Source: Escherichia phage mellemsur. Taken from it: a stretch of 40,770 nt of DNA. The position numbers and the translations under genes are program-made. This document shows, one piece after another, positions 4,436 through 37,291 of the stretch (the stretch's first letter is position 1; the number at the start of each line of letters is the position of its first letter). The notes below the pieces were generated by a model. That model was given only the letters and a program-made list of their open reading frames with translations, had not been told where the DNA came from and did no database searches. The stretch is taken from the sequence record MN850570.1. One strand, 5' to 3'.

Positions 4436-4972
4436 CTACAGCGTCGCACAGTAAGCGCTACAGCGTTTTGCACGAGCAACCAAGGCATCCCTATAGCGAA
4501 CCACTGTCGGGGCTGTAGAAGCCTTTAGGAACGCAATACGAAGGTCACAGATGGCTGCTGCTGCGGAGTGAGGTTCCAGACGTTTGGCTGCTGCCACGGT
4601 AGCAGGGCCAATAACCCCGTCTTGTGCAACGCCGCATACCCGCTGTAGAGCTTTCGCCGCACGGGAGACACCGGAGTTGACACCGTAGTCAAACACGGCA
4701 CATGCAATCGCAGGGTGAAGCTCGTCACCTCGGATGGGGGCGTAGTAATCCCGTCGATAGATTGCTTCGGCTTGTGCTTTGGTGAGGTCTTTGATAGGCA
4801 CGCAAATAGTACCGCCAAGCCCAGTAGGGACACCACAAGCTCGGCCATCCAGTTTGCCATCACGAGCGTCGCTAATTCCATGATTCGTTTCCCCTCCGGT
4901 ATCGCCGGGCAGCTTGGTGTAACCACCTTCTGCCAGCCCGGTGAACCGCATACAGATTTCAAAGTTAGTCAT
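4436..4972 (-). CDS. endolysin, GH108-type N-acetylmuramidase with C-terminal peptidoglycan-binding-like domain
   Basis: N-terminal EGGY...D-x-GG-x-T-x-x-GI motif typical of GH108; no signal/SAR sequence; ATGA overlap with upstream gene. Confidence 0.75.
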   Translation of the reverse strand: MTNFEICMRFTGLAEGGYTKLPGDTGGETNHGISDARDGKLDGRACGVPTGLGGTICVPIKDLTKAQAEAIYRRDYYAPIRGDELHPAIACAVFDYGVNSGVSRAAKALQRVCGVAQDGVIGPATVAAAKRLEPHSAAAAICDLRIAFLKASTAPTVVRYRDALVARAKRCSAYCATL

Positions 4973-24783: not shown

Positions 24784-25044
24784 TTAGCTCCCAATGCCGA
24801 GGTTACTTGCCACACCAGTTCCGGTGCGACGGCGGCGACCACCCAGCGTATCAGAGGCCGAGCTTACTTGGCCACCTGCCTGAATGGTTGGGGTGTTCTC
24901 ACCAGCGAGGTCGGCTGCAAGGTTAGCCTGCATGGTTTCTGCCTTTACCTGCGCCGGGTCAGTCTTGATAGTGTACTGCGGCTTTTGGCTACCCAGTCCG
25001 AAGACGGAGCCAATGCCCTTGAATACTTTGCCTACGCTACCCAT
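24784..25044 (-). CDS. hypothetical protein (possible small virion protein)
   Basis: 86 aa Gly/Ser-rich with Arg cluster; directly upstream of portal. Confidence 0.4.
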   Translation of the reverse strand: MGSVGKVFKGIGSVFGLGSQKPQYTIKTDPAQVKAETMQANLAADLAGENTPTIQAGGQVSSASDTLGGRRRRTGTGVASNLGIGS

Positions 25045-25463
25045 TACGGTTTCTCCAAATCAATGAAGCGGTACTCCTGAACGTAAGGCCGCACCATATG
25101 GGAGTAACCGCACCAACGCACACCCGCTGAACGGGCCACGTCTTTGAGTACACGGAGGATGGCACGCATCACTCCACGGTTTCTGTACTGGGGCCAGACG
25201 TATGAGGCCATAACGACCACCATCTCGCCCACATGAATATCGAATAATCTGCCGATGTGAGCGACAGCCATGAGGCTGCCGTCATCGTCAGTGATGTAAA
25301 CGTCAACGCAACCGGAGGCGGTGGCCTCATACATGCTGTCAACAATCACATCGGGAGATAGGTCTGACCATGGCCGCTCAGCTTGAATACCTTCGGCCAC
25401 AGCACGGCGAATGTCGAGTGGCATCGTCGTGTGTGATGTATTTCCCATAGTAGACACTTTCAT
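25044..25463 (-). CDS. hypothetical protein, possible GNAT-like acetyltransferase
   Basis: 139 aa; segment WPQYRNRGVMRAIL resembles GNAT motif A; weak. Confidence 0.35.
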   Translation of the reverse strand: MKVSTMGNTSHTTMPLDIRRAVAEGIQAERPWSDLSPDVIVDSMYEATASGCVDVYITDDDGSLMAVAHIGRLFDIHVGEMVVVMASYVWPQYRNRGVMRAILRVLKDVARSAGVRWCGYSHMVRPYVQEYRFIDLEKP

Positions 25464-25464
25464 T

Positions 25465-25650
25465 TCAAATCACTCTTTCTCTGATGAAATCCAGAACGTC
25501 TTGCTTACCAGCCTCTCTGTTAATCAGAGGTAGGTTAGTGTCGGGAGTGACTGTCTTACCTACCTGAGACCATGTACCGAAGTGCTTCTCCAGTAGAGCT
25601 AACTGTGCTTTAGTGAACTGAACTCTTTCAAGTGGAGATTCTTTACCCAT
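25465..25650 (-). CDS. hypothetical small protein (start at MGKESPLERV)
   Basis: AAGAGAGGA Shine-Dalgarno before internal ATG; first gene after RNAP. Confidence 0.45.
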   Translation of the reverse strand: MGKESPLERVQFTKAQLALLEKHFGTWSQVGKTVTPDTNLPLINREAGKQDVLDFIRERVI

Positions 25651-25699
25651 ACAATCCTCTCTTAGTGGCAGCAACCCCCGCCACTGACGGGGCTACCGG

Positions 25700-25732
25700 T
25701 AGCGTGATATCTATCACTATAGACACTTTCAT
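25700..25732 (+). promoter_or_regulatory. conserved element copy A (plus strand tagcgtgatatctatcactatagacactttcat)
   Basis: Near-identical to reverse complement of 3819-3850; core CACTATAGA as in T7/SP6 promoters; flanked by 12-bp palindrome gctaccggtagc (25692-25703) and GC hairpin (25676-25692). Confidence 0.4.
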
Positions 25733-25760
25733 TTAAGTCAATGATACATATCACTATTTA

Positions 25761-28193
25761 TCAGCAGAAAAACTTGCTTGATTGTTTCACAAGCTGGATA
25801 TCCAGATTGCCCCGTTCGGGTGCAACAGCATTGTATCGTACAGCAAGTTGTTGAATTGGGTCATGTTGCTCATACATCTGTACGAACTTTTCACGAATGA
25901 CCTTGTGGAGTAACCCGGCATGTGCAGCCGCCACCCCGAACGAATCGTGGATGGACACCATGTACACCCCGTTATTCCACATCTCCCACAACACCTTCAT
26001 CATGTGGCTAGCATCCATGGCGTGTACGAAATTCGGAGCAATCGCAGCGGCACACTTCCTGCCGTCCGGCTTGTCCAGATACTCGCGCAGCTTAATGCTG
26101 TGGATACCCATGAGGTTGATGTTGTTGAGCATCGTCTCCTTGCTGGCTTGATACAGGTTAACCACCCGCAACCCCGATGGTGCAATGATTTCCACGTACT
26201 CGCCGTTGGCTGCCGCCTCAACAGCGATAGCCTGCAACCATGCCATCAGCTCTGCCGCCTTCGGCACAACGCGAGGGATTGCATTCCACATAAACTCTGC
26301 GATGAACTGCGCACACTCCAGCAGGCTCTTGCCGTCCGGCAGCTTGACCCGGTTCTCTCGCAGGTACAGGCAGTAGTAGTCCACCATGCCGTGCCGGGTT
26401 GCCCCGTACACGTAGGTCATCACTGGCTTCTTAGCCATCGCCCGGACAATACCGATTGAAACAAGCCACGTACCCATCTGCGTCGGTGACTGCGCCTCAC
26501 TATCTTCAAGAGCCTGCATCGCCGCTGCTGCCGTCTTGAGATATATGTCTGCTTTTCTTCCCACGCTATTGATAAGATTGACAGCAGCACCGCCAACTTC
26601 ATCTCGTAGCATCGCACTGAGGTGCTGTAATCCTGAACAGGTAGCGTCCCATTGCGTAACCACTCGGCAGGGATAAGTCTCAGGACTTCCTGAGTCGATA
26701 GCGCGAATGAGTTCAACAGAGGCAGCCCACGCGCTGATAGGGCTATCGGCTTCTGACCAGAACGAATCAAATGCCTCTGGAAGACGGCACGCCTCACGTA
26801 GTCGGGGGAGTGTCTTGTCCGTCCACGCCGCCCGGTCGTCGAAGTCTGTTGCGTCGTAGCCGAAGCAATTCGCAACATGAACCTTGAGCCAGAACAGCCC
26901 CTCAGTTCCGAGAGCCACTGGTTCCGCAAGCTCAAGCAGCGCTCGCACTGCGTCGATAGACTGAGGGTTAAGGGTCGAAGAATAATAAATTCGGCCCCGC
27001 GTATCGGCGTAAGTCGGGAGATAAATCCTATCGTACTGTGCATACCTGTCTGCCTCTTTGACTGCACCATTCAACGCCAGCATCTGCGACGTGAACTTAC
27101 GCAACTCATTGTAATACAAGCGAGTCTTCACCTTGTACTCATGAGCTTCGGCACCCATCTGCTGCTGCATCTCTGGTGGGAACTTGCTGATGTACTGTGC
27201 AAAGCTCACACCAGCGGGGATGGTGAACGGAAGTGTAGGCTCACGGGGTGGCACAGGCAGCCCCATAACGCCTGTACGGTTCGTTCGCAGGAACTCCAGT
27301 ACCATTGGGTTAACTCGGTACGGAACGCTGCTGAGCATCATACACGGCTCTATAACGGGGGTCGGGTCAACGTTCAATGCACGATACCCTTTGTGGTTCA
27401 TGCGGCTCATGACCCGGTACATCGCCGCCTGCCCATCGGAATGCCACATACCGCTGCGACCGTTCGGGGCAATCTGCTTCGGTGGGATAATCAGCGGTGG
27501 GCAGCACATGCCATCAGCACGCGGCATGTCCAGCCAGTCGTTCATCGTAGCCAGCACATCTTCGTGCAGTGCGAAGTGTGCCGTACCGCGCTGGCGCTGG
27601 TTGCCGCCGGCGCGAATCGTGGACACCAGACCAGTTGGCTCGACGCACTTCATCATCAGCTTGCCAATGGTAATCAGCGCACGCTGCGGCAGCACATCAA
27701 TCTCTACCCCAACGTTCGCCGCCGACGCACGCGCTTTGTTGTAGACGTGGTTCGCTGACTTCGAGCGAGACTTCTTCACGTCCTGCTTAACGCGCTCCAT
27801 GTACGCCGCCTGCTGTGGCCCGGTCTGCTTCGCCCGGAGGTACACTACCTCAGCCATCAGTGCCTTGCCCATGCTCTTGAGCAGACTCAGTACCGCCTGC
27901 TCCGACGCAGCACCGGACACCGCCATGCTCAGTGCGAGAGAGGCACACGCTTTGGTGCCAATCTCACGCATGTACGTCCGGTACTGCGCACCATACCCAC
28001 GGGTCGTTTCGCTCAAGGTTTCTTGCATCGCAGCTTCGACCAGAGGATAAGCCTCAACCATCATACGCTGGAGCAACGGCACCGACCCGGCGCGGCCACT
28101 GGCCATCGCCTCTTTGATATTATCCAGCCAGCCCTCGCGGTGTCTGGCTCGCGCTTCTTCTTCAAGTCGAATCTGCTCTGCAAGTAAATCCAC
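25761..28193 (-). CDS. single-subunit DNA-dependent RNA polymerase (T7/phiKMV-type)
   Basis: 810 aa; DATCSGLQHLSAML (T7 RNAP motif A region) and SIHDSFG (motif C region). Confidence 0.9.
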   Translation of the reverse strand: MDLLAEQIRLEEEARARHREGWLDNIKEAMASGRAGSVPLLQRMMVEAYPLVEAAMQETLSETTRGYGAQYRTYMREIGTKACASLALSMAVSGAASEQAVLSLLKSMGKALMAEVVYLRAKQTGPQQAAYMERVKQDVKKSRSKSANHVYNKARASAANVGVEIDVLPQRALITIGKLMMKCVEPTGLVSTIRAGGNQRQRGTAHFALHEDVLATMNDWLDMPRADGMCCPPLIIPPKQIAPNGRSGMWHSDGQAAMYRVMSRMNHKGYRALNVDPTPVIEPCMMLSSVPYRVNPMVLEFLRTNRTGVMGLPVPPREPTLPFTIPAGVSFAQYISKFPPEMQQQMGAEAHEYKVKTRLYYNELRKFTSQMLALNGAVKEADRYAQYDRIYLPTYADTRGRIYYSSTLNPQSIDAVRALLELAEPVALGTEGLFWLKVHVANCFGYDATDFDDRAAWTDKTLPRLREACRLPEAFDSFWSEADSPISAWAASVELIRAIDSGSPETYPCRVVTQWDATCSGLQHLSAMLRDEVGGAAVNLINSVGRKADIYLKTAAAAMQALEDSEAQSPTQMGTWLVSIGIVRAMAKKPVMTYVYGATRHGMVDYYCLYLRENRVKLPDGKSLLECAQFIAEFMWNAIPRVVPKAAELMAWLQAIAVEAAANGEYVEIIAPSGLRVVNLYQASKETMLNNINLMGIHSIKLREYLDKPDGRKCAAAIAPNFVHAMDASHMMKVLWEMWNNGVYMVSIHDSFGVAAAHAGLLHKVIREKFVQMYEQHDPIQQLAVRYNAVAPERGNLDIQLVKQSSKFFC

Positions 28194-28195
28194 GA

Positions 28196-28510
28196 CTACT
28201 CCTTAACTTGTTTGCTCAGGTGCTCAATCAGCTTACCGTCTTCGGCGTACTGCTCAACGAGACCTACACCGTATGATGGCTTGCCCGGCTCGTCATATCC
28301 CGGCTGCGCTTGTTTGCGCTGGCCTAAGTCACTCAGTACAGAATGTTGCAGTGCCGGGTCATTCGTACCCGTACCGCCGCAGGCTTCGCAATCCATCAGG
28401 ACTACCTGCCCACCAATCAACATGCCACGGTAGGTGCCGCTACCCATGCAGGCACCACACACTTTATGGTCAACCACCGTGTCGTCAATGGCTCTTTGAT
28501 AACGACTCAT
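28196..28510 (-). CDS. small zinc-finger protein
   Basis: CGACMGSGTY...CEACGGTGT resembles DnaJ-type CxxCxGxG zinc-finger repeats; start moved to internal ATG. Confidence 0.45.
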   Translation of the reverse strand: MSRYQRAIDDTVVDHKVCGACMGSGTYRGMLIGGQVVLMDCEACGGTGTNDPALQHSVLSDLGQRKQAQPGYDEPGKPSYGVGLVEQYAEDGKLIEHLSKQVKE

Positions 28511-28518
28511 ACAATCTC

Positions 28519-28695
28519 CTACGCAAGACAGGCAAACAGAATAGCAGGGATGACAGCCAAGAATACCCACAGGATAAAGCCTGCTGCACCAGACCTGTCA
28601 ACGTGTGTCTTGTTGTACTGGTCGCACGCAGCCAGACAGACAACAGAGAACAGGGCAAACCATACCACAGCTACAATCCAAAGTAAAACACTCAT
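28519..28695 (-). CDS. small membrane protein
   Basis: about 58 aa with two hydrophobic helices; start moved to MSVLLWIV. Confidence 0.4.
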   Translation of the reverse strand: MSVLLWIVAVVWFALFSVVCLAACDQYNKTHVDRSGAAGFILWVFLAVIPAILFACLA

Positions 28696-29270
28696 TTGCG
28701 TTTCCTTAATTCGAGTTCCAGAATGAACAGCGCATTGCACGCAGCGTGCGCCAGATGGTGCAGGTTGGATTCGCTATCCAGTTCCTCACCCTTGCCCACC
28801 GCCGTCAGGTGCCGGAGCAGCGCTGACTTGTAGCGTTCCTCACCTTCCGGTACAGTCTGCCACGAGTGGGCTGCATACTTCTCAGCGCCGAAGGTGAGCA
28901 CGCTGGCTACAGCCTCCAGTGCATTCGGGCAGCCATCGAACAGCAGTGACATGCGGGGCTTGCCGCCGTCAAACTTCATGCCGCCCGGCCCAGCACTCTT
29001 GGCCACGGCCACCTCAACATCACTGGCCGGGTCGTACGGGTCAACCGGGATGAACGCAGTCTCGACTTCTTTCACCTCGAACGGCTCCAGTACCAGCGTG
29101 TGGGTCTTGCCATCCTTCACGCAGGTGTAGTAATCGCGGCTGTCATTCGGCACATCGTACGGTTCGTCGTACGTCAGGATGATACCTTGCTCAGCAATGT
29201 CGCTCAGCAGCGTGCCAGTACCCCAGTTGCGTGTCGGGTCTAAGATAAACTTCTGACCTTTCTTACCCAT
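28692..29270 (-). CDS. putative dATP/dGTP diphosphohydrolase-domain protein
   Basis: C-terminal half KFDGGKPR...VLTFGAEKY...W...LRHL...ELDSESNLHHLAHAACNALF matches my recollection of the dGTP diphosphohydrolase N-terminal domain family; GGAGG Shine-Dalgarno before MGKKGQ start. Confidence 0.45.
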   Translation of the reverse strand: MGKKGQKFILDPTRNWGTGTLLSDIAEQGIILTYDEPYDVPNDSRDYYTCVKDGKTHTLVLEPFEVKEVETAFIPVDPYDPASDVEVAVAKSAGPGGMKFDGGKPRMSLLFDGCPNALEAVASVLTFGAEKYAAHSWQTVPEGEERYKSALLRHLTAVGKGEELDSESNLHHLAHAACNALFILELELRKRK

Positions 29271-29790
29271 TCGCCTTACCTCCATCGACCTTAGAATCAG
29301 CGCCATCGTATTTAGCATTGGCATGAACATACTCATGATTGTCCTCGTACCGGGTCACTTCATAAACCGTGATGCCGAGGCCACGCATGAAGTCAACGAT
29401 GTGCGGCAGGTCGTCGAAAGCACACACGATGTTCTCAATGCCAATGTCCTCCAGCGCCGCCAGCTTCATCTCTGTGTCTTTACGGCAGTCGCCAATCTCT
29501 CTCATGATTAGTTTGTCGTAAACCACACCAGCTTCGTCGAGCCACTGCTCGGTTACTTCACGGGCCACGGCTCCGCGTCCGGTCAGGATGATAATGCGAT
29601 ACGTGAGGGCCAGAGCGTTCACAATATCAATCGTGTCCTGAAACGCAGGGTCGTCAGCGCCAGCCAAGTTGAACTCGGCCCACGCTTCATCAAGGTGCCG
29701 ACGCTCCGGTGGAGGCAGCAGGTGTAAACGCCAACGGCCATCGGCCAGCGTGCCGTCAAGGTCTACTACTACGGTGTCTTTCATGTGCAT
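29263..29790 (-). CDS. HAD-family polynucleotide 3'-phosphatase (T4 Pnk phosphatase-domain-like, no kinase domain)
   Basis: DLDGTLAD (HAD motif I), TGRG, GDCRKD, AFDD collinear with phosphatase domain of T4 polynucleotide kinase; no P-loop. Confidence 0.65.
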   Translation of the reverse strand: MHMKDTVVVDLDGTLADGRWRLHLLPPPERRHLDEAWAEFNLAGADDPAFQDTIDIVNALALTYRIIILTGRGAVAREVTEQWLDEAGVVYDKLIMREIGDCRKDTEMKLAALEDIGIENIVCAFDDLPHIVDFMRGLGITVYEVTRYEDNHEYVHANAKYDGADSKVDGGKANG

Positions 29791-29980
29791 CGTGTGCTTC
29801 CTCAAGAGCGAAAATAATATCTCGGACATATGCCCAAGGCAACCAGACTTCCTCACCGTCCTGCGAAATGCAGACGGTGCCATCCTTATACAGCTCGACC
29901 TGAGTGTTGGCCTCCCACTCAATGGAGAGGCCATCCTCTTTGAGCTGCACCACATCTTCTTGGTACAGTGTTCTCGTCAC
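29756..29980 (-). CDS. hypothetical small protein
   Basis: 74-aa ORF with GTG start overlapping stop of upstream gene; overlaps HAD start. Confidence 0.35.
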   Translation of the reverse strand: MTRTLYQEDVVQLKEDGLSIEWEANTQVELYKDGTVCISQDGEEVWLPWAYVRDIIFALEEAHDAHERHRSSRP

Positions 29981-31104
29981 TCCAACATCTCCGGGCTAAT
30001 GGTGAATCGTGCGACCTCACCGTACCGGGCATGATAAGTAATCACGCTCGCGCTGCGCTCACTCAGCCAGCCACCACGAGAAGCATAGGCATCCTTCGCC
30101 GCCAGCGTGCGGTGCTGCTCGACAATCATGACACCAGACTCTAGCACCTTCTTGTGATGCAGGTGGCCAACGTGTGCATACGCATGTTTGGTTCGGCCAT
30201 ACACTTCGCGGAACTTGGCGACCAGTACAGTCTCCAGTTGTTCTGCCTTACGCTTGTGACCATGGTGGAAGAACAGCGCCGTCTCGCCATGCTCGTAGCA
30301 GTAGTACGGGTCAGGGCTGCGGTCAACAGTGACACGCGGCTCGTCGGCGTACAGTACATGCAGCAGCTCACGCATCCAGATTGAGCTGGCCATGTCGTGG
30401 TTGCCCTCGGCACACACTACGTGAACCTGCGGGAACTTCTCCAGCAGCATACCAATGATGCGGCGCTGCGCCCTGATAGCCACACGTACCAGTTTCTGGA
30501 ATCGCGTGTCAGCATCAAGCACATGCCCACTCGATGGCGTTACTGCATCCAACCCATCCCAGTGCAGGAAGTCACCGAGCTGGCCGAAGATAGCAACCTG
30601 TGCTGGCGGCGCACTGGCAATCGCTGCCGAGAACCACTTGACCAGCAGGTCTTCCGCAATCTTCATATCCCAGTCGTCACCAGTTTCCTCTGCCCACGCC
30701 AGCATACCGAGGTGGTAGTCAGTCAGCACGAACAGGTTCAGCAGCTCAGCAGGTGCCGCGCCCCCGGCGTACGGTCGGGCAGCTTCCGGGGTGATGCTCT
30801 CGCTAATTGCATCGACAGCTTCTTGCAGCAGCGCCAGCTCCTGCTCGCGGTCGAGTGCCGTCTTCACCCACTGCATGACAACGTTGCCGTCCTTATCGTA
30901 CAGCGTGGACGTACCCTTCACCGCATACGGCTCCGGCACTTCCTTCGTCATGTCGTGCTCAGGACTCCAGCCGCTCTTGGCAAGCTGGCGCTTCCGGTAT
31001 CGAATGGCGCTCTCGGTCATGTCATGCTTCTCAGCAATGGCCTTGGTGCCAAGCCCTTCGGCAATGTCTTCTTTGAGTTGGTGATTAGTTAACTTGGTCA
31101 TCAT
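29977..31104 (-). CDS. calcineurin-like metallophosphoesterase with N-terminal HTH-like region
   Basis: Motifs TDYHLG, GDFLH, GNHD, HHGH, GHLHH (binuclear metallophosphoesterase signature); N-terminal about 50 aa helix-turn-helix-like. Confidence 0.7.
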   Translation of the reverse strand: MMTKLTNHQLKEDIAEGLGTKAIAEKHDMTESAIRYRKRQLAKSGWSPEHDMTKEVPEPYAVKGTSTLYDKDGNVVMQWVKTALDREQELALLQEAVDAISESITPEAARPYAGGAAPAELLNLFVLTDYHLGMLAWAEETGDDWDMKIAEDLLVKWFSAAIASAPPAQVAIFGQLGDFLHWDGLDAVTPSSGHVLDADTRFQKLVRVAIRAQRRIIGMLLEKFPQVHVVCAEGNHDMASSIWMRELLHVLYADEPRVTVDRSPDPYYCYEHGETALFFHHGHKRKAEQLETVLVAKFREVYGRTKHAYAHVGHLHHKKVLESGVMIVEQHRTLAAKDAYASRGGWLSERSASVITYHARYGEVARFTISPEMLE

Positions 31105-31493
31105 TTCCCCTTAGTGATTAAGGCTCGCGCTTTCGCGGCTGCTGCCTTCTTACGTCTCTCGGCTGTCGCCGCTTTCTTCTCTGCCTCGGTCTTGTGCGTT
31201 GGGTACATCAGACCAGTGTGTTGCTTACGTCGCCACTCGATGGCGCTGTCCAGCCAGTCATCAACTGTGCGCTGGCGCTTCGCTCGGTTGGCAGAGTTCT
31301 CTACCTTGCCGAGCTGAGCATTACACCAGCGGCAGATGACACCGCGAATCTCCCCACTCACATGGTCGTGGTCAACCACCATGAGCTTGAGGTCTACCAT
31401 CGGCTCGTTACAGAGTGGGCAAGGACAGCCCATCGCATTCTTCCGCATCTGCAACAAGGTCGCGCCAGTCACTTTCCGCATACCATTCCTCAT
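31101..31493 (-). CDS. endonuclease VII-family junction-resolving nuclease
   Basis: CPCPLC...DHDH...GEIRGVICRWCN pattern typical of T4 endo VII / HNH-like fold. Confidence 0.7.
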   Translation of the reverse strand: MRNGMRKVTGATLLQMRKNAMGCPCPLCNEPMVDLKLMVVDHDHVSGEIRGVICRWCNAQLGKVENSANRAKRQRTVDDWLDSAIEWRRKQHTGLMYPTHKTEAEKKAATAERRKKAAAAKARALITKGK

Positions 31494-32382
31494 TCAATTT
31501 CTTATGCAGCCAGACACGCAGCTCCTTGCTCAAGGTCAGCGTATTGAGGTGGGCTGCGAATGAGTAGGTCGGCGTGCGGTACAGCCACAACGCCACTGCT
31601 TCTGGCCATGGGTTCTGGTCGCGCACCATGTACTCACGGAGCACGAACTCAGCCACAGCCGACTCGTCATCAGTCTCCTGATAATCGACCAGCATATCGT
31701 AAGCTGTCTGCTTACCAATCTTCTTGACACCAGCGATGTTGTCGGCGCTGTCGCCCATCAACATCTGCGCCCAAAAGAAGATAGGCCCATGACCAATCAG
31801 CGACTTGTCACTCTTGGTCTCGTGCCACCACAGACGGCCAACACCTTTGCACGGCTCCAGTACCTTGTTGTCGTACGGGTCGAGGAACCTGCCCGGCCAG
31901 CAGCGCAGGTCTTTATCCGCGCTGTAGATTACTGCATCGTTAATGCCAATCGTCCACGCGTCCATGATTAAGGTGTCGTCAGCCTCGAACTCAAAGTTCA
32001 GGTGAACGTACCAGTCCTCACCATCAGGAACGTTGAACATGTTCCGGCCAATTGCTTTACGCAACGGCTCAACCAGACCGGGCTTGCGGTCTTTGTCTCG
32101 GTTGCCTTGGTACAGCTTGGCCCCACGCAGCTTGTACCGTCCAGCTTTCGTACACTCCGCAGCGGTCAACTCGATACGAACTGACTGAGCATTGGCGAGG
32201 AACTTGGCAGTCAGTACCCCGGAACAGAATCGTGTCTTCGCCGTCTCGATGTTCTTCGTGGTTGCTGCCGCGACGTAGACTGTCGAGTCAGCATCACACA
32301 GCAGAATACGACCAGACACGTAACCATCAAACTGGTCATCAAGTTCCTCGGCATTGTGAAGCAAGCGTTTCAATCTGCTCAT
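31408..32382 (-). CDS. 5'-3' exonuclease (FEN-like)
   Basis: LLCDADS, EADD, GDSADNIAGV motifs of 5'-nuclease family. Confidence 0.8.
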   Translation of the reverse strand: MSRLKRLLHNAEELDDQFDGYVSGRILLCDADSTVYVAAATTKNIETAKTRFCSGVLTAKFLANAQSVRIELTAAECTKAGRYKLRGAKLYQGNRDKDRKPGLVEPLRKAIGRNMFNVPDGEDWYVHLNFEFEADDTLIMDAWTIGINDAVIYSADKDLRCWPGRFLDPYDNKVLEPCKGVGRLWWHETKSDKSLIGHGPIFFWAQMLMGDSADNIAGVKKIGKQTAYDMLVDYQETDDESAVAEFVLREYMVRDQNPWPEAVALWLYRTPTYSFAAHLNTLTLSKELRVWLHKKLNEEWYAESDWRDLVADAEECDGLSLPTL

Positions 32383-32554
32383 TCACTCTCTCCATCAGCA
32401 TGTTCTCAATCATCTTCTTCAAAGTGAAGAACATGTCGTAGCTCATTTCAACTTTCTCGCTGCGGCTTTTGATTACCATGCACATGTCGCGAGGCTCGTC
32501 GTAAACGATAACCTCGCCCGGCTCTAACTCTCGCATGTATCCTCCACGGCACAT
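32339..32554 (-). CDS. hypothetical small protein
   Basis: 71-aa ORF overlapping exonuclease start. Confidence 0.4.
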   Translation of the reverse strand: MCRGGYMRELEPGEVIVYDEPRDMCMVIKSRSEKVEMSYDMFFTLKKMIENMLMERVNEQIETLASQCRGT

Positions 32555-32571
32555 CCCTGTGCCACTGTCAG

Positions 32572-33471
32572 TTACAGACTCGGCAGGCCGAAGTCAGCAT
32601 CGCCAGTCACGTCCGGCTCAGGCTTGGATGCTGCCGACTTGTCAGCCGCGCCAGCCGTTGCCAGCTCCTGCACTTCCTGCTTAACCTCAGCCACTTCCTC
32701 CGGCTGGCCCACGTCGCCCAGCTCAGGCAGCTCAGCGATTGCCGAGCCAGCACCAGCGCCGTTCAGCAGCAGGTCAAGCGGAGAGCCGGGGAACTCAGGA
32801 GATTCCAGCAGCTTGTCCTGAATCCAGTTCTTGGATTTGCCATCGTCGTTCTTGCCTTCGATGTACAGGGATTCCCAGTCCTCTTTGGTCGGACGGTTCC
32901 ACAGGAACAGCTTGAACAGCGTCTCGTCCTCAACCTCCGGCACCGGGTACGGCTGGTCAGTCACCGGGTCAACCGCGAGCATGATGTTCTCAAGGTCGAT
33001 GTTGGCGTACACCTTCTTGTTCTCACCCTCGCCCGATTCGTTGTGGATAATCGGAACAATGAAGGTGTGGTTCAGAAGCTGCGCGAAGTGCTTCGCAGTC
33101 TTGTCCGGGTTCATACGCTTGAACAGTTTGTAAGCGCCGGACTTGCTGTTCAGGTCTTTCTTCACAGCGATGAACTGCGTGCGCACCTTGCCCGGCACCA
33201 TCTTACCATTGACAACTTCATGGTAAGTCTCGCCGTTCTTGGCCTTGCCCCACAGTGCGAACTGGAGGAAGAACTTATTGACAGGCGGTTTGTCCGGTGC
33301 CTGCTTGGTCACGCTCGGCCCCACTTCAATGTAGCCAACCAGTCGCGCCAGTGCCTTACCTTCCGGCAGCAGCTTACCACCACCGGACGTGGCTTCGTTA
33401 AAGTCAAGTTCTTCCTCGTCAACATACTGTTCGACGATGGAGTTCATGCGGTTCAATACAGATGCGGTCAT
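32572..33471 (-). CDS. hypothetical protein with acidic C-terminal tail (possible DNA-replication accessory / ssDNA-binding)
   Basis: 299 aa immediately downstream of DNA polymerase; acidic C-terminus ending ...DADFGLPSL; function speculative. Confidence 0.45.
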   Translation of the reverse strand: MTASVLNRMNSIVEQYVDEEELDFNEATSGGGKLLPEGKALARLVGYIEVGPSVTKQAPDKPPVNKFFLQFALWGKAKNGETYHEVVNGKMVPGKVRTQFIAVKKDLNSKSGAYKLFKRMNPDKTAKHFAQLLNHTFIVPIIHNESGEGENKKVYANIDLENIMLAVDPVTDQPYPVPEVEDETLFKLFLWNRPTKEDWESLYIEGKNDDGKSKNWIQDKLLESPEFPGSPLDLLLNGAGAGSAIAELPELGDVGQPEEVAEVKQEVQELATAGAADKSAASKPEPDVTGDADFGLPSL

Positions 33472-35933
33472 AATGCGATACCCTTACTCGTCAGGAATTG
33501 TCTCTTAAACTCCAGCACTTCATCGGCTGTCGTCTCTACGTGGTGCTTCTCGTACATGCTTGGCCCTGCTTCCACCTCTGCCGGGAACGGCACTGTCAGG
33601 TTATACTCTGGCCATACGTGGTTATAGTATTCCGGGATGCTCTCCATGATTGCCTTGAGTCCAACGAAGAACTCGTGAGGGCAGTCAGGTGCAATGTCGA
33701 AATAGAATGCGTCATGCACTTGGTTGATGGGAACCACACGCCCACCAAAGAAGTCGTTCGATAGCAGCCAGCGGAACAGCAGGCCACCGATTCCCTGTAC
33801 CCAAAATGCGGTCTCACCCTGAATCGGGTAGTTACGCATCTGAGTTGGTTTGTATTCCATCAGGTGAGCACGCGCCGCCTTGTTCCATTTCTCGTACTGA
33901 CGGAATGAATAACAAGTTCCACCCGGCGACCGGAAGTGACCACGGCGATACACCTGCCATCTTCCGTTCTCGTCCTGCTCCTTGAACACATTGCTCTGTC
34001 CACTTTTCTCCACGGCTGGGAAGATAACCGAGTCGAACCATTCTTCAACTTCCGGGAACAGACCCTTCTCGTTGTCGATGAACGCTTGAGCTTCTTCCTC
34101 AGAGCAACCAGTCGAGTACGCAATGCCTCGCGCTGTTGCACCATACTGATATGAGAACGCCTTCGGCTTAATGTCAGTACGCATCTGACTATATCGTGCA
34201 TGGTCAGGATGGGATTCATCCTTGCACTTCTTAAGCACGTCCTCGTATGGCTCGTTGAGCTGAGCTGACAGACGCATACAGTGCATGTCGATACCGTCGA
34301 GCAATGCACGAATCAGGTTCTTATCCTTGCTGAACCCGGCCAGCCCCACCACTTCCAGTGCCGAGTAGTCAGCCTCAACGATGCGGCCACCTTCACCAAA
34401 GCGGGAGGTGAACATCTGCTTAACTTTACTCGTGCCTTTACGTGGCAAGTTCTGACTGTTAGGTCGCGCCGATGATAGGCGCGTCGTCTCCGTCGCGGTC
34501 ATGTTGATGGTGTGGTGTACGATACTGTCCGGCTGGATGAACTGCATCATCCCCGACTGGCCAGTCACGTTCCCTTCTTCATCGAACGTCTCGCTCAGGT
34601 AGTAAGTGCCGAGGTCTTTCTGTGCCTTGGCTCGGTCGGCAATCTCCACCACGCCGGGAATCTTACGCGCTGCCAGAATGTCCAGCACCTCACCCGCCGT
34701 ACTGAATACCGGACTGCCATCGGCAAGCCTGCGCTTACCAACCCAGTCACCCGTGCGCCGCAGGTATTCGCCCGGTCGCTTCGGGTCTTCCCATTCGAGG
34801 TTGTCTGCAATCTCCTTCGCTCGTTTATCCTGCACACGCAGGAGGCCCGGCATTCGGAACAGCACCTCACCCCACTTGGTATCCACTTCATCCGTTGCCA
34901 GCTTCTCAAACTTGGGCGCACCCTTGTTCTTCCCGCTGGTGTAGATGGTCTGGTGTACCTTCTCAACCGGGTCATACCATAGCCCGGTCTCGGCATCCCA
35001 CTCGCACTCGTTGGTATGCTTGACCCACTTGTCCTTGCCACGCTTGAACAGTGGTGCATCCACCTTGACGTAAATGAGATTGCCATCCCCATCCCGGCGC
35101 TCGACTCGCGCCTTGTACTTCATCACGCCGCCGAACACGAACGCACTCATGTGGTAAGCTGACGTGAACTTGAACTGGTCACGCGCTTCCTGTGGCATGT
35201 CGGCTGGCAGGTAACTCAGCAGCGTATCAGTCAGCCCACTGATTGCATCTTGCAACTCACGGCGGTTGCGCTCGGCAACCTCGCGGTCAACGTGCAGACC
35301 AGCGTGCATCATGTACGCCCACATGAGCATACCTTCGAACCGGGTCAGTGCCATTGGCAACATGCCCTGCTTCGTCAGCTCAGCCCACTGACCAACGAAC
35401 AGCTTGGTCGTGTTCTCGATATCGCCGGACGGCCCGGACAGATATTCGCTCAGCAGCTCAGGGTCAATCTGGCTGGTCAGGTATCCCGACTCCCACATTG
35501 CCTTGACTGCATCCACCTTGTGAGTACCACCATACTTCGGTGCTGTCTCGTTCAAGGATGGGTACTGGGATTGCTGATGCGTCAGCAGGTACTCAGCATA
35601 CGCGGTACAGAATACACGGCCACCTCGTTTGAGGAAGGCAATGAACTCGTCACCGTAATGCTCGAACCACCAGCTCAATTCATACGGCGCGTTGTGAGCT
35701 ACCAGAATGTTCGTGTCAGGATGCAGGTGCAGACTCTTGTTCTGCAACCAGTCCTCACGAGAACTGTACCGATACTCCTCGCGCTCGTAGAATACCCAGC
35801 CATCCTTGGTCAGCACACAGTCACGCTGGCCCTGCATAACCACATAGTTATCCGGGCAGCGCGGCGATGCCAGCTCCCCATACCACTCATGGTTCTCAGT
35901 CTCAACGTCGATTACCTGTGCTCTTATTGCCAT
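33468..35933 (-). CDS. DNA polymerase, family A
   Basis: 821 aa; DYSALEV (motif A), K-x-x-F-x-YQYG (motif B), QVHDA (motif C). Confidence 0.9.
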   Translation of the reverse strand: MAIRAQVIDVETENHEWYGELASPRCPDNYVVMQGQRDCVLTKDGWVFYEREEYRYSSREDWLQNKSLHLHPDTNILVAHNAPYELSWWFEHYGDEFIAFLKRGGRVFCTAYAEYLLTHQQSQYPSLNETAPKYGGTHKVDAVKAMWESGYLTSQIDPELLSEYLSGPSGDIENTTKLFVGQWAELTKQGMLPMALTRFEGMLMWAYMMHAGLHVDREVAERNRRELQDAISGLTDTLLSYLPADMPQEARDQFKFTSAYHMSAFVFGGVMKYKARVERRDGDGNLIYVKVDAPLFKRGKDKWVKHTNECEWDAETGLWYDPVEKVHQTIYTSGKNKGAPKFEKLATDEVDTKWGEVLFRMPGLLRVQDKRAKEIADNLEWEDPKRPGEYLRRTGDWVGKRRLADGSPVFSTAGEVLDILAARKIPGVVEIADRAKAQKDLGTYYLSETFDEEGNVTGQSGMMQFIQPDSIVHHTINMTATETTRLSSARPNSQNLPRKGTSKVKQMFTSRFGEGGRIVEADYSALEVVGLAGFSKDKNLIRALLDGIDMHCMRLSAQLNEPYEDVLKKCKDESHPDHARYSQMRTDIKPKAFSYQYGATARGIAYSTGCSEEEAQAFIDNEKGLFPEVEEWFDSVIFPAVEKSGQSNVFKEQDENGRWQVYRRGHFRSPGGTCYSFRQYEKWNKAARAHLMEYKPTQMRNYPIQGETAFWVQGIGGLLFRWLLSNDFFGGRVVPINQVHDAFYFDIAPDCPHEFFVGLKAIMESIPEYYNHVWPEYNLTVPFPAEVEAGPSMYEKHHVETTADEVLEFKRQFLTSKGIAL

Positions 35934-36928: not shown

Positions 36929-37291
36929 TCACCACTTACTCGGCACGCTGCCGGGCAGGTAGCTGGTCGTCGGCTTACGCTCAACGTACTGGTTGTACAC
37001 TGACATGGCATCACACGCTGCTTGGTACAGACGCTCAGCCTCAGCGTAGCTCCAGTCCTCGGCAGTCGCCTCCGGTTCAGGCGTGGCTGCTACATGCGGT
37101 GCGTCACCAATCAGCGCCCACGACGCATGGCGTGCAGTCCACGAGCCACTGATACCAGAACCACGCGCACCATCGTCGCGGTCAATGCTCACGTACTTGT
37201 CGTTGATGTCAACCACAGTACCCTTCGCACCGTAATGCACACTGCGTGCATCAATGTTTACTACTCGGTCGCCTACCTTCAAATGGCTCAT
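36929..37291 (-). CDS. hypothetical protein with KOW/SH3-like N-terminal motif
   Basis: 120 aa; KVGDRVVNIDARSVHYGAKGTVV resembles KOW motif; overlaps helicase stop. Confidence 0.45.
   Translation of the reverse strand: MSHLKVGDRVVNIDARSVHYGAKGTVVDINDKYVSIDRDDGARGSGISGSWTARHASWALIGDAPHVAATPEPEATAEDWSYAEAERLYQAACDAMSVYNQYVERKPTTSYLPGSVPSKW

Follow-up and report, generated by a model that had tools for sequence, protein, structure and literature searches.

A two-domain PF18909 protein of a Bonnellvirus combines a putative dNTP pyrophosphohydrolase domain with an exchangeable N-terminal module of predicted SH3-like fold

The stretch of DNA analysed here, 40,770 nucleotides of Escherichia phage mellemsur (MN850570.1) and hereafter the window, is the near-complete genome of a Bonnellvirus, a phiKMV-like podovirus of E. 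coli/Enterobacter (Autographiviridae/Autoscriptoviridae, Stentvirinae), in which every gene lies on the minus strand. Our subject is a complete coding sequence (CDS) at 28692..29270 (192 amino acids plus stop, MGKKGQKF...LRKRK), which encodes a two-domain protein with a C-terminal PF18909 domain. An earlier note, made by a model from the letters alone, had placed an open reading frame (ORF) here, and that ORF is real: a Shine-Dalgarno sequence, GGAGGT (29278..29283), stands 7 nucleotides 5' of the ATG and inside the 3' end of the upstream gene, and the same boundaries are found in the GenBank entry of Escherichia phage megetsur (99.5% identical), where the product is labelled 'putative phosphodiestherase'. 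In the entry of phage LF82-23 it is a 'hypothetical protein'. The protein matches phrog_19680 over its full length (E=2.6e-75), and the surrounding region (25700-32400) shares 99% identity with Enterobacter phage BHUENT7, Escherichia phage Ec1-ASingh and phage megetsur.

The gene directly upstream encodes a HAD-family polynucleotide 3'-phosphatase (29263..29790; Pfam PF25109 HAD_PNKP, E=1.2e-14; phrog_415). Its stop codon overlaps the start codon of the PF18909 gene (ATGGGTAA), and this overlap of 8 nucleotides suggests that the two genes are translationally coupled. The stop of the PF18909 gene in turn overlaps the start of the next gene (ATGA), so that it forms part of a tightly packed middle-gene block of nucleases, the HAD phosphatase and the RNA polymerase gene (25761-28193). 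The earlier note had set the gene between the 3'-phosphatase and RNA polymerase genes; this is correct on the upstream side, but two small ORFs separate the gene from that of the RNA polymerase. We found no support for the further suggestion of a link with the switch to late transcription, since all of these genes belong to one middle-gene block and a promoter and terminator scan of 25000-33600 gave counts at the level of shuffled sequence. With counts at that level, a separate transcription unit cannot be claimed.

Pfam assigns residues 97-190 (28701..28982) to PF18909 (dGTP_diPhyd_N, formerly DUF5664) with E=4.8e-33 and 113.5 bits against a cutoff of 27 bits, the match covering profile positions 4-93 of 99. 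The attribution of this half to the dATP/dGTP diphosphohydrolase family, made in the earlier note from the motifs KFDGGKPR, VLTFGAEKY, LRHL and LHHLAHAACNALF, all of which are present in the translation, was therefore right as to family. The name 'N-terminal domain' fits less well, as it derives from the fusion protein of phage SH-Ab 15497, whereas here the domain is C-terminal and most likely catalytic. Conserved residues in the domain are K99, D101, K104, E119, K131, Y132, W137, R153, H154, E162, D165, E167 and H172; across 13 diverse PF18909 members, G128, K131, Y132, W137, R153, H154, E162, D165 and H172 are invariant. In an AlphaFold2 model of the 192-residue protein (51-sequence alignment, mean predicted local distance difference test score, pLDDT, of 84.5), the domain is predicted to be a helix bundle, with helices at 107-113, 115-131, 143-159 and 172-191. 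Foldseek returned no match for this domain, sequence and profile searches matched no PDB chain, and PF18909 was the sole Pfam match at E<=10 for the C-terminal domains of 51 members. The domain is very strongly kept (87-100% identity), and its ratio of nonsynonymous to synonymous divergence (dN/dS) against three Bonnellvirus genomes, the comparison used for all such ratios below, is 0.04-0.11. Because domain-only PF18909 proteins of 100-111 amino acids occur naturally, the C-terminal domain is most likely the catalytic unit itself.

The chemistry of the family was established in 2026 (Nucleic Acids Research, PMC12884076), and the gene described here adds a member to it. In Arthrobacter phage Wayne, the DUF5664 protein turns dATP, dUTP and dGTP into deoxynucleoside monophosphates (dNMPs), acting on dATP with a kcat of 0.48 s-1 and a Km of 20 uM and more slowly on dUTP and dGTP (for dUTP, S50 12.5 uM and kcat 0.22 s-1). 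A DUF5664-DUF550 fusion from Acinetobacter phage SH-Ab 15497 acts as a pyrophosphohydrolase on dATP and dGTP (PMC12884076). The substrates shown for these phage enzymes are deoxynucleoside triphosphates (dNTPs) only, ribonucleotide activity being unreported in that study (PMC12884076). The Wayne protein (ALY10775.1) resembles ours in having a single C-terminal PF18909 domain (98-195 against 97-190) behind an N-terminal extension of about 97 residues. The two are 43% identical over 77 residues, and K131, Y132, W137, R153, H154, E162, D165, E167 and H172 are kept in Wayne, whereas H175 is not. However, the extension of Wayne gp51 is Cys/His-rich and unrelated to the predicted barrel of our protein. 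Furthermore, the siphovirus Wayne has a Z-genome pathway with PurZ0, and the gene lies beside purZ0, whereas the present phage is a canonical-DNA podovirus without PurZ. The SH-Ab 15497 protein, MazZ, which is the namesake of the Pfam family, matches PF18909 at residues 3-98 (E=2e-24) and has the same invariant residues, but there the domain is N-terminal and fused to PF04447 (DUF550) at 170-244, and the gene lies between purZ and datZ. The present protein lacks DUF550, is not accompanied by Z-genome genes and has a predicted N-terminal SH3-like barrel; K99, E119, K131, Y132, W137, R153, H154, E162, D165, E167 and H172 are identical in all three proteins. As regards the Z-genome system (PurZ/DatZ/MazZ/DpoZ), neither PurZ/PurZ0 nor DatZ was found alongside the gene in the megetsur annotation and the Pfam-checked ORFs.

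The relationship to the MazG-like superfamily (MazG, dimeric dUTPases, HisE, AF0060 and Atd1) is less certain. The modelled C-terminal domain appears only moderately similar to these structures, and a Pfam comparison of 51 members at E<=10 gave no sequence or profile match to the MazG families (MazG, dUTPase_2, PRA-PH). The classic EExxE...ExxD arrangement of MazG-like enzymes is not evident; the acidic residues of the present protein are instead E119 and, in a loop, E162-x-x-D165-x-E167. We believe that the domain probably works like a MazG-type pyrophosphohydrolase, membership of the superfamily itself being unproven.

The first 96 residues, which correspond to the unassigned N-terminal region of roughly 100 residues in the earlier note, have no match in Pfam (even at E<=10), NCBIfam, PADLOC or the PDB sequences. 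Residues 1-70 (29061..29270; core approximately 5-67) are modelled confidently (pLDDT 84-93) as a small SH3/KOW-like beta-barrel of five or six strands and one helix, and we are confident in the prediction of a five-stranded SH3-like barrel topology, elaborated by the one inserted helix and a conserved YDEPYDxPNDSRxYY hairpin. At the level of sequence the domain is an orphan: it could not be placed in a named family (KOW PF00467, SH3 or Tudor) by Pfam at E<=10, and a phmmer search of 1.8 billion cluster representatives returned only its own cluster and an 814-residue tandem-repeat protein (P0121), aligned in 10 stretches against residues 10-47, which we rejected as a repeat-inflated chance match. 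The domain is common to 13 sequences, namely the present protein and 12 homologues, at 36-97% identity and with an invariant YDE.YD..ND.R.Y hairpin. Its dN/dS of 0.11-0.21 identifies it as a real coding unit under purifying selection. The linker that joins it to the PF18909 domain (residues 71-96, 28983..29060; FIPVDPYDPASDVEVAVAKSAGPG) is variable, with a pLDDT of 49-73 that falls below 50 at residues 94-99, a dN/dS of 0.3-0.8, and indels that include its deletion in some members of the same N-module cluster.

The N-terminal domain is exchangeable and probably an accessory adaptor outside the catalytic core, because syntenic phages carry an unrelated module, or none, at the same breakpoints. 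Our sample consisted of the best 120 homologues, whose C-terminal domains are 50-100% identical to that of the present protein. Among 116 close homologues, the stretches that precede the GGMK(Y/F)D motif can be grouped into at least 21 module types between which BLAST finds no relationship. Of the 116, 12 lack a module altogether; the type described here is restricted to the cluster of 13. Profile-profile comparison of the ten largest N-module clusters found this cluster unrelated to all the others (probability <=2%), the only mutually related pairs being 4/6 and 4/7 (85-89%), which rules out that all modules are detectable homologues of one another. The N-modules of the homologues gave no Pfam family match. 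At the DNA level, breaks in blastn similarity delimit a replaceable cassette at 28989..29302 that comprises the N-module and the last bases of the upstream gene: against the syntenic contigs L005, L011 and L012, similarity ends at 29303-29309 and restarts at 28985-28993. The site holds approximately 310 bp in the window but 26 bp (no module), 208 bp and 209 bp (other modules) in syntenic contigs. Three metagenomic contigs with the gene order of the window (endonuclease VII, 373-residue exonuclease, 75-residue ORF, HAD phosphatase, PF18909, small ORF(s), RNA polymerase) encode a module-less protein of 111 residues (P0026), a protein with a second module type (P0016) and one with a third (P0024). 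These proteins and those of LIMEzero, Buco (gp32) and PP16 come from phiKMV-like phages and occupy the same locus with C-terminal domains 70-93% identical to ours, whereas the N-module is missing or unrelated in sequence.

The two halves of the gene have discordant histories. Synonymous divergence (dS) from smaasur is 0.25 in the N-terminal half and 0.80 in the C-terminal half, while from altidsur it is 1.52 and 0.49, respectively, and this discordance indicates that recombination has occurred between the halves. The most frequent of the other modules, the P0014 type, was likewise modelled by AlphaFold as a barrel of five strands, which resembles the KOW domains of L24 and Spt5, the Xrn1 SH3-like domain and Tudor domains; on these models, at least two modules unrelated in sequence would share the SH3-like fold class. 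In 80 IMG/VR loci, where extension lengths were taken from the longest ORFs and are hence upper bounds, about one third of the genes have no N-terminal extension and about 30% have one of at least 59 residues. Longer extensions of 130-190 residues with Pro/Ala-rich linkers were seen at L014 (Stenotrophomonas phage Pepon, 2123-2803), L063, L069, L079 and L082, and the PF18909 proteins of L089 and L095 carry C-terminal extensions, such that the architectures of the family are more varied than the cassette set.

The pairing with the HAD phosphatase recurs in other phages. A HAD gene lies directly upstream of the PF18909 gene in 34 of the 80 IMG/VR loci, as counted with a custom HAD hidden Markov model that may miss distant HADs, and the two are also adjacent in Ralstonia phage Reminis and a Vibrio zobellvirid. 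Universal pairing was rejected, since it is absent in Stenotrophomonas phage Pepon and a Bruynoghevirus; the association is thus frequent but not universal. Our search of the literature on DUF5664/PF18909 and Bonnellvirus yielded no study that addresses the function of this gene in canonical phages. New in this analysis are the predicted SH3-like fold of the orphan N-terminal domain, its exchange as a cassette at sharply defined breakpoints and the recurrence of its gene's coupling with that of a HAD phosphatase.

Based on analogy with the assayed relatives, we propose, with a probability of roughly 60%, that the two-domain protein is a metal-dependent (d)NTP pyrophosphohydrolase that trims or sanitises the dNTP pool while the phage replicates its DNA, and that its N-terminal barrel is a dispensable, exchangeable adaptor. 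The PF18909 domain would cut the alpha-beta phosphoanhydride bond in a divalent-metal-dependent reaction, releasing dNMP and pyrophosphate from dNTPs, of which dATP, dGTP and dUTP are most likely preferred. In this reaction the metal would be coordinated by E119, E162, D165 and E167, and the triphosphate would be bound by K99, K104, K131, R153, H154 and H172. The pool available to the phage polymerase would be cleared of dUTP or unwanted purine dNTPs or, alternatively, would be rebalanced after the breakdown of host DNA, with the enzyme working beside the coupled HAD 3'-phosphatase and the adjoining nucleases. The barrel would not be needed for catalysis; it probably docks the enzyme to a partner, whether protein or nucleic acid, or controls its assembly. 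We infer the trimming or sanitising role from the canonical DNA of the phage and from its lack of PurZ and of any recognisable dUTPase. Indeed, in the 54-CDS annotation of the 99%-identical megetsur and in Pfam searches of the large unassigned ORFs of the window, no dUTPase, PurZ, DatZ or other nucleotide-pool enzyme was recognised, and those ORFs gave no Adenylsucc_synt or HD-domain match. In every phage inspected, the gene lies within a nuclease/phosphatase/replication block.

The earlier note had likewise suggested that the phage may alter nucleotide pools, which is reasonable given that relatives hydrolyse dATP, dGTP and dUTP (PMC12884076) and that the invariant residues are conserved in the present sequence. 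Several points weigh against our proposal, however. The assayed PF18909 members all come from Z-genome phages and none from a canonical-DNA phage. Destruction of dATP makes obvious sense in Z-genome phages, whereas hydrolysis of dATP and dGTP would be wasteful for a phage with canonical DNA, and the true substrate may be different. In addition, the metal ligands are assigned from residue conservation, the docking or assembly role of the N-terminal domain is a guess from its modelled fold class, and the assayed Wayne enzyme carries its own 97-residue extension and is therefore not a bare domain.

A narrower version of the proposal is that the enzyme is a dUTPase or house-cleaning replacement, which removes dUTP or damaged dNTPs such as dITP and 8-oxo-dGTP. 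Enzymes of the dimeric dUTPase and MazG/DCTPP1 types have this function, and such a role would be attractive in view of the wastefulness of bulk dATP/dGTP hydrolysis; the genome yielded neither a trimeric dUTPase nor any other sanitising enzyme. The dUTP values of the Wayne protein are close to its dATP values (PMC12884076), and house-cleaning is what the all-alpha NTP pyrophosphohydrolase superfamily is known for, according to the passage of PMC2238974 that cites Moroz et al. 2005. We nevertheless hold this version only tentatively, as the host E. coli has a Dut of its own, the assayed relative works at low catalytic rates, and substrate preference in the clade of the present protein is argued by analogy. 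We consider it unlikely that the C-terminal domain instead serves counter-defence, its target being not bulk dNTPs but a signal, trigger or alarmone of host immunity derived from nucleotides, such as (p)ppGpp, dITP or a messenger oligonucleotide, with the exchanged N-terminal barrels as adaptors shaped by an arms race with different hosts. On that account, phiKMV-like phages would have at their PF18909 locus a hotspot of cassette exchange where SH3-like adaptors re-target the enzyme, forming a counter-defence or host-takeover module with the HAD phosphatase; the part of the adaptors would be to contact partners particular to each host or to escape recognition by it, and the enzyme would remove a nucleotide trigger or signal, beyond pool sanitising. 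The swapping of so many unrelated N-modules at one site among syntenic phages and the discordant histories of the two halves are typical of host-interaction loci. Moreover, Atd1, a MazG-like all-alpha pyrophosphatase from a phage, depletes (p)ppGpp and weakens TIR-based defence (bioRxiv 10.1101/2022.06.09.495361), and pairs of MazG-like and HAD nucleotide-acting proteins have been proposed in defence systems (bioRxiv 10.64898/2026.01.15.699771), the present gene being itself HAD-coupled. However, Atd1 belongs to a different Pfam family, the C-terminal domain is under the very strong conservation described above, and the gene lies in a replication/repair block and not among early anti-defence genes. 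Given also that PADLOC gave no match and that PF18909 enzymes have been shown to act on dNTPs only (PMC12884076), the depletion of signalling nucleotides raised in the earlier note is speculation.

Two other explanations bear on the identity of the product. It is very improbable that the first 96 residues reflect no more than read-through or an artefact of annotation and that the true product starts at Met98. Although Met98 is nearly invariant, opens the conserved GGMK(F/Y)D motif and has natural counterparts in proteins that begin only 7-9 residues before it, we rejected this start because the N-terminal frame is open, conserved in the 13 homologues and under purifying selection, because G-G-M is internal in the short homologues too, and because GCTGGGCCGGGCGGC abuts the Met98 ATG, leaving no spaced Shine-Dalgarno, whereas a strong one precedes Met1. 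The confident fold prediction for the N-terminal domain also argues against it. It is still more improbable that the PHROG label is right and that the protein is a T7-lysozyme-like 'endolysin that inhibits RNA polymerase', regulating the adjoining RNA polymerase. The label has some currency: phrog_5033 and phrog_2252 ('endolysin; inhibits RNA polymerase') match residues 84-191 with E=1.8e-47 and 1.8e-23, several GenBank records of homologues say 'endolysin' (e.g. Vibrio phages K165/K88 and Pseudomonas phage NV1), and the gene stands two small ORFs upstream of the RNA polymerase gene. However, Pfam detects PF18909 alone and no amidase (Amidase_2) or lysozyme domain, the predicted fold is helical and not that of an amidase, the phage has a separate GH108 endolysin with a peptidoglycan-binding domain (4436-4972), and in other phages the PF18909 gene is not adjacent to the RNA polymerase gene. 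For these reasons, we regard 'endolysin; inhibits RNA polymerase' on PF18909 proteins as almost certainly a propagated mis-annotation, which most likely originated in positional analogy with T7 gene 3.5.

PF18909 proteins occur in at least 772 INPHARED phage records, nearly all of them called 'hypothetical', 'phosphodiesterase' or, wrongly, 'endolysin', and the biochemistry of the family is confined to two Z-genome phages. Learning what the enzyme does in podoviruses with canonical DNA would show more clearly how small lytic phages that lack genes for nucleotide synthesis, including Klebsiella, Pseudomonas and E. coli phages used in therapy, manage their dNTP pools. Furthermore, the swapping of N-terminal barrels on a nearly invariant core offers a naturally occurring test of domain modularity and could lead to partner proteins. 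This is not a new kind of system: the basic assignment was within reach of a routine Pfam search, and the gene is already in public records, albeit poorly annotated.

The genes on either side add detail to the locus. The product of 29263-29790 is called a 'polynucleotide kinase', but it comprises the HAD 3'-phosphatase domain only (PNKP phosphatase), with no kinase domain. As no RNA/DNA ligase is annotated in megetsur, a classic end-healing/sealing pathway is not evident; in the related phages Reminis and Pepon a ligase lies a few genes downstream. A 74-residue ORF (29756-29980) weakly matches PF00552, the DNA-binding domain of integrases (E=9.8e-5, 22 bits where the cutoff is 21), and further upstream of the HAD gene are a metallophosphoesterase-type 'DNA repair exonuclease' (phrog_704) and genes annotated as endonuclease VII and exonuclease. 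A 120-residue ORF elsewhere in the window (36929-37291) weakly resembles the Xrn1 SH3-like domain PF18129 (E=6e-5, below cutoff), and small beta-barrel modules may be widespread among these phages.

On the other side, the start of a 58-residue ORF (28519-28695; MSVLLWIVAVVWFALF...ILFACLA) overlaps the PF18909 stop. Its two hydrophobic stretches suggest two transmembrane segments, and searches against Pfam, PHROG and PADLOC returned nothing for it. Both this ORF and the N-module are indels; for the ORF, 28511-28689 has no counterpart in the syntenic contig L005. Between it and the RNA polymerase gene, directly upstream of the latter, a 104-residue zinc-finger protein (28196-28510) carries two CxxCxGxG motifs, with a weak match to the DnaJ central domain (E=0.0012, below cutoff) and a match to phrog_6060, 'anti-termination protein Q-like' (E=6e-15). 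Just after the RNA polymerase gene, at the start of the structural block, a 139-residue GNAT acetyltransferase (25044-25463; PF00583, E=6e-5) is conserved in contig L005. Finally, an S-adenosylmethionine lyase (PF23780), an anti-restriction SAMase, is encoded at 2520-2909.

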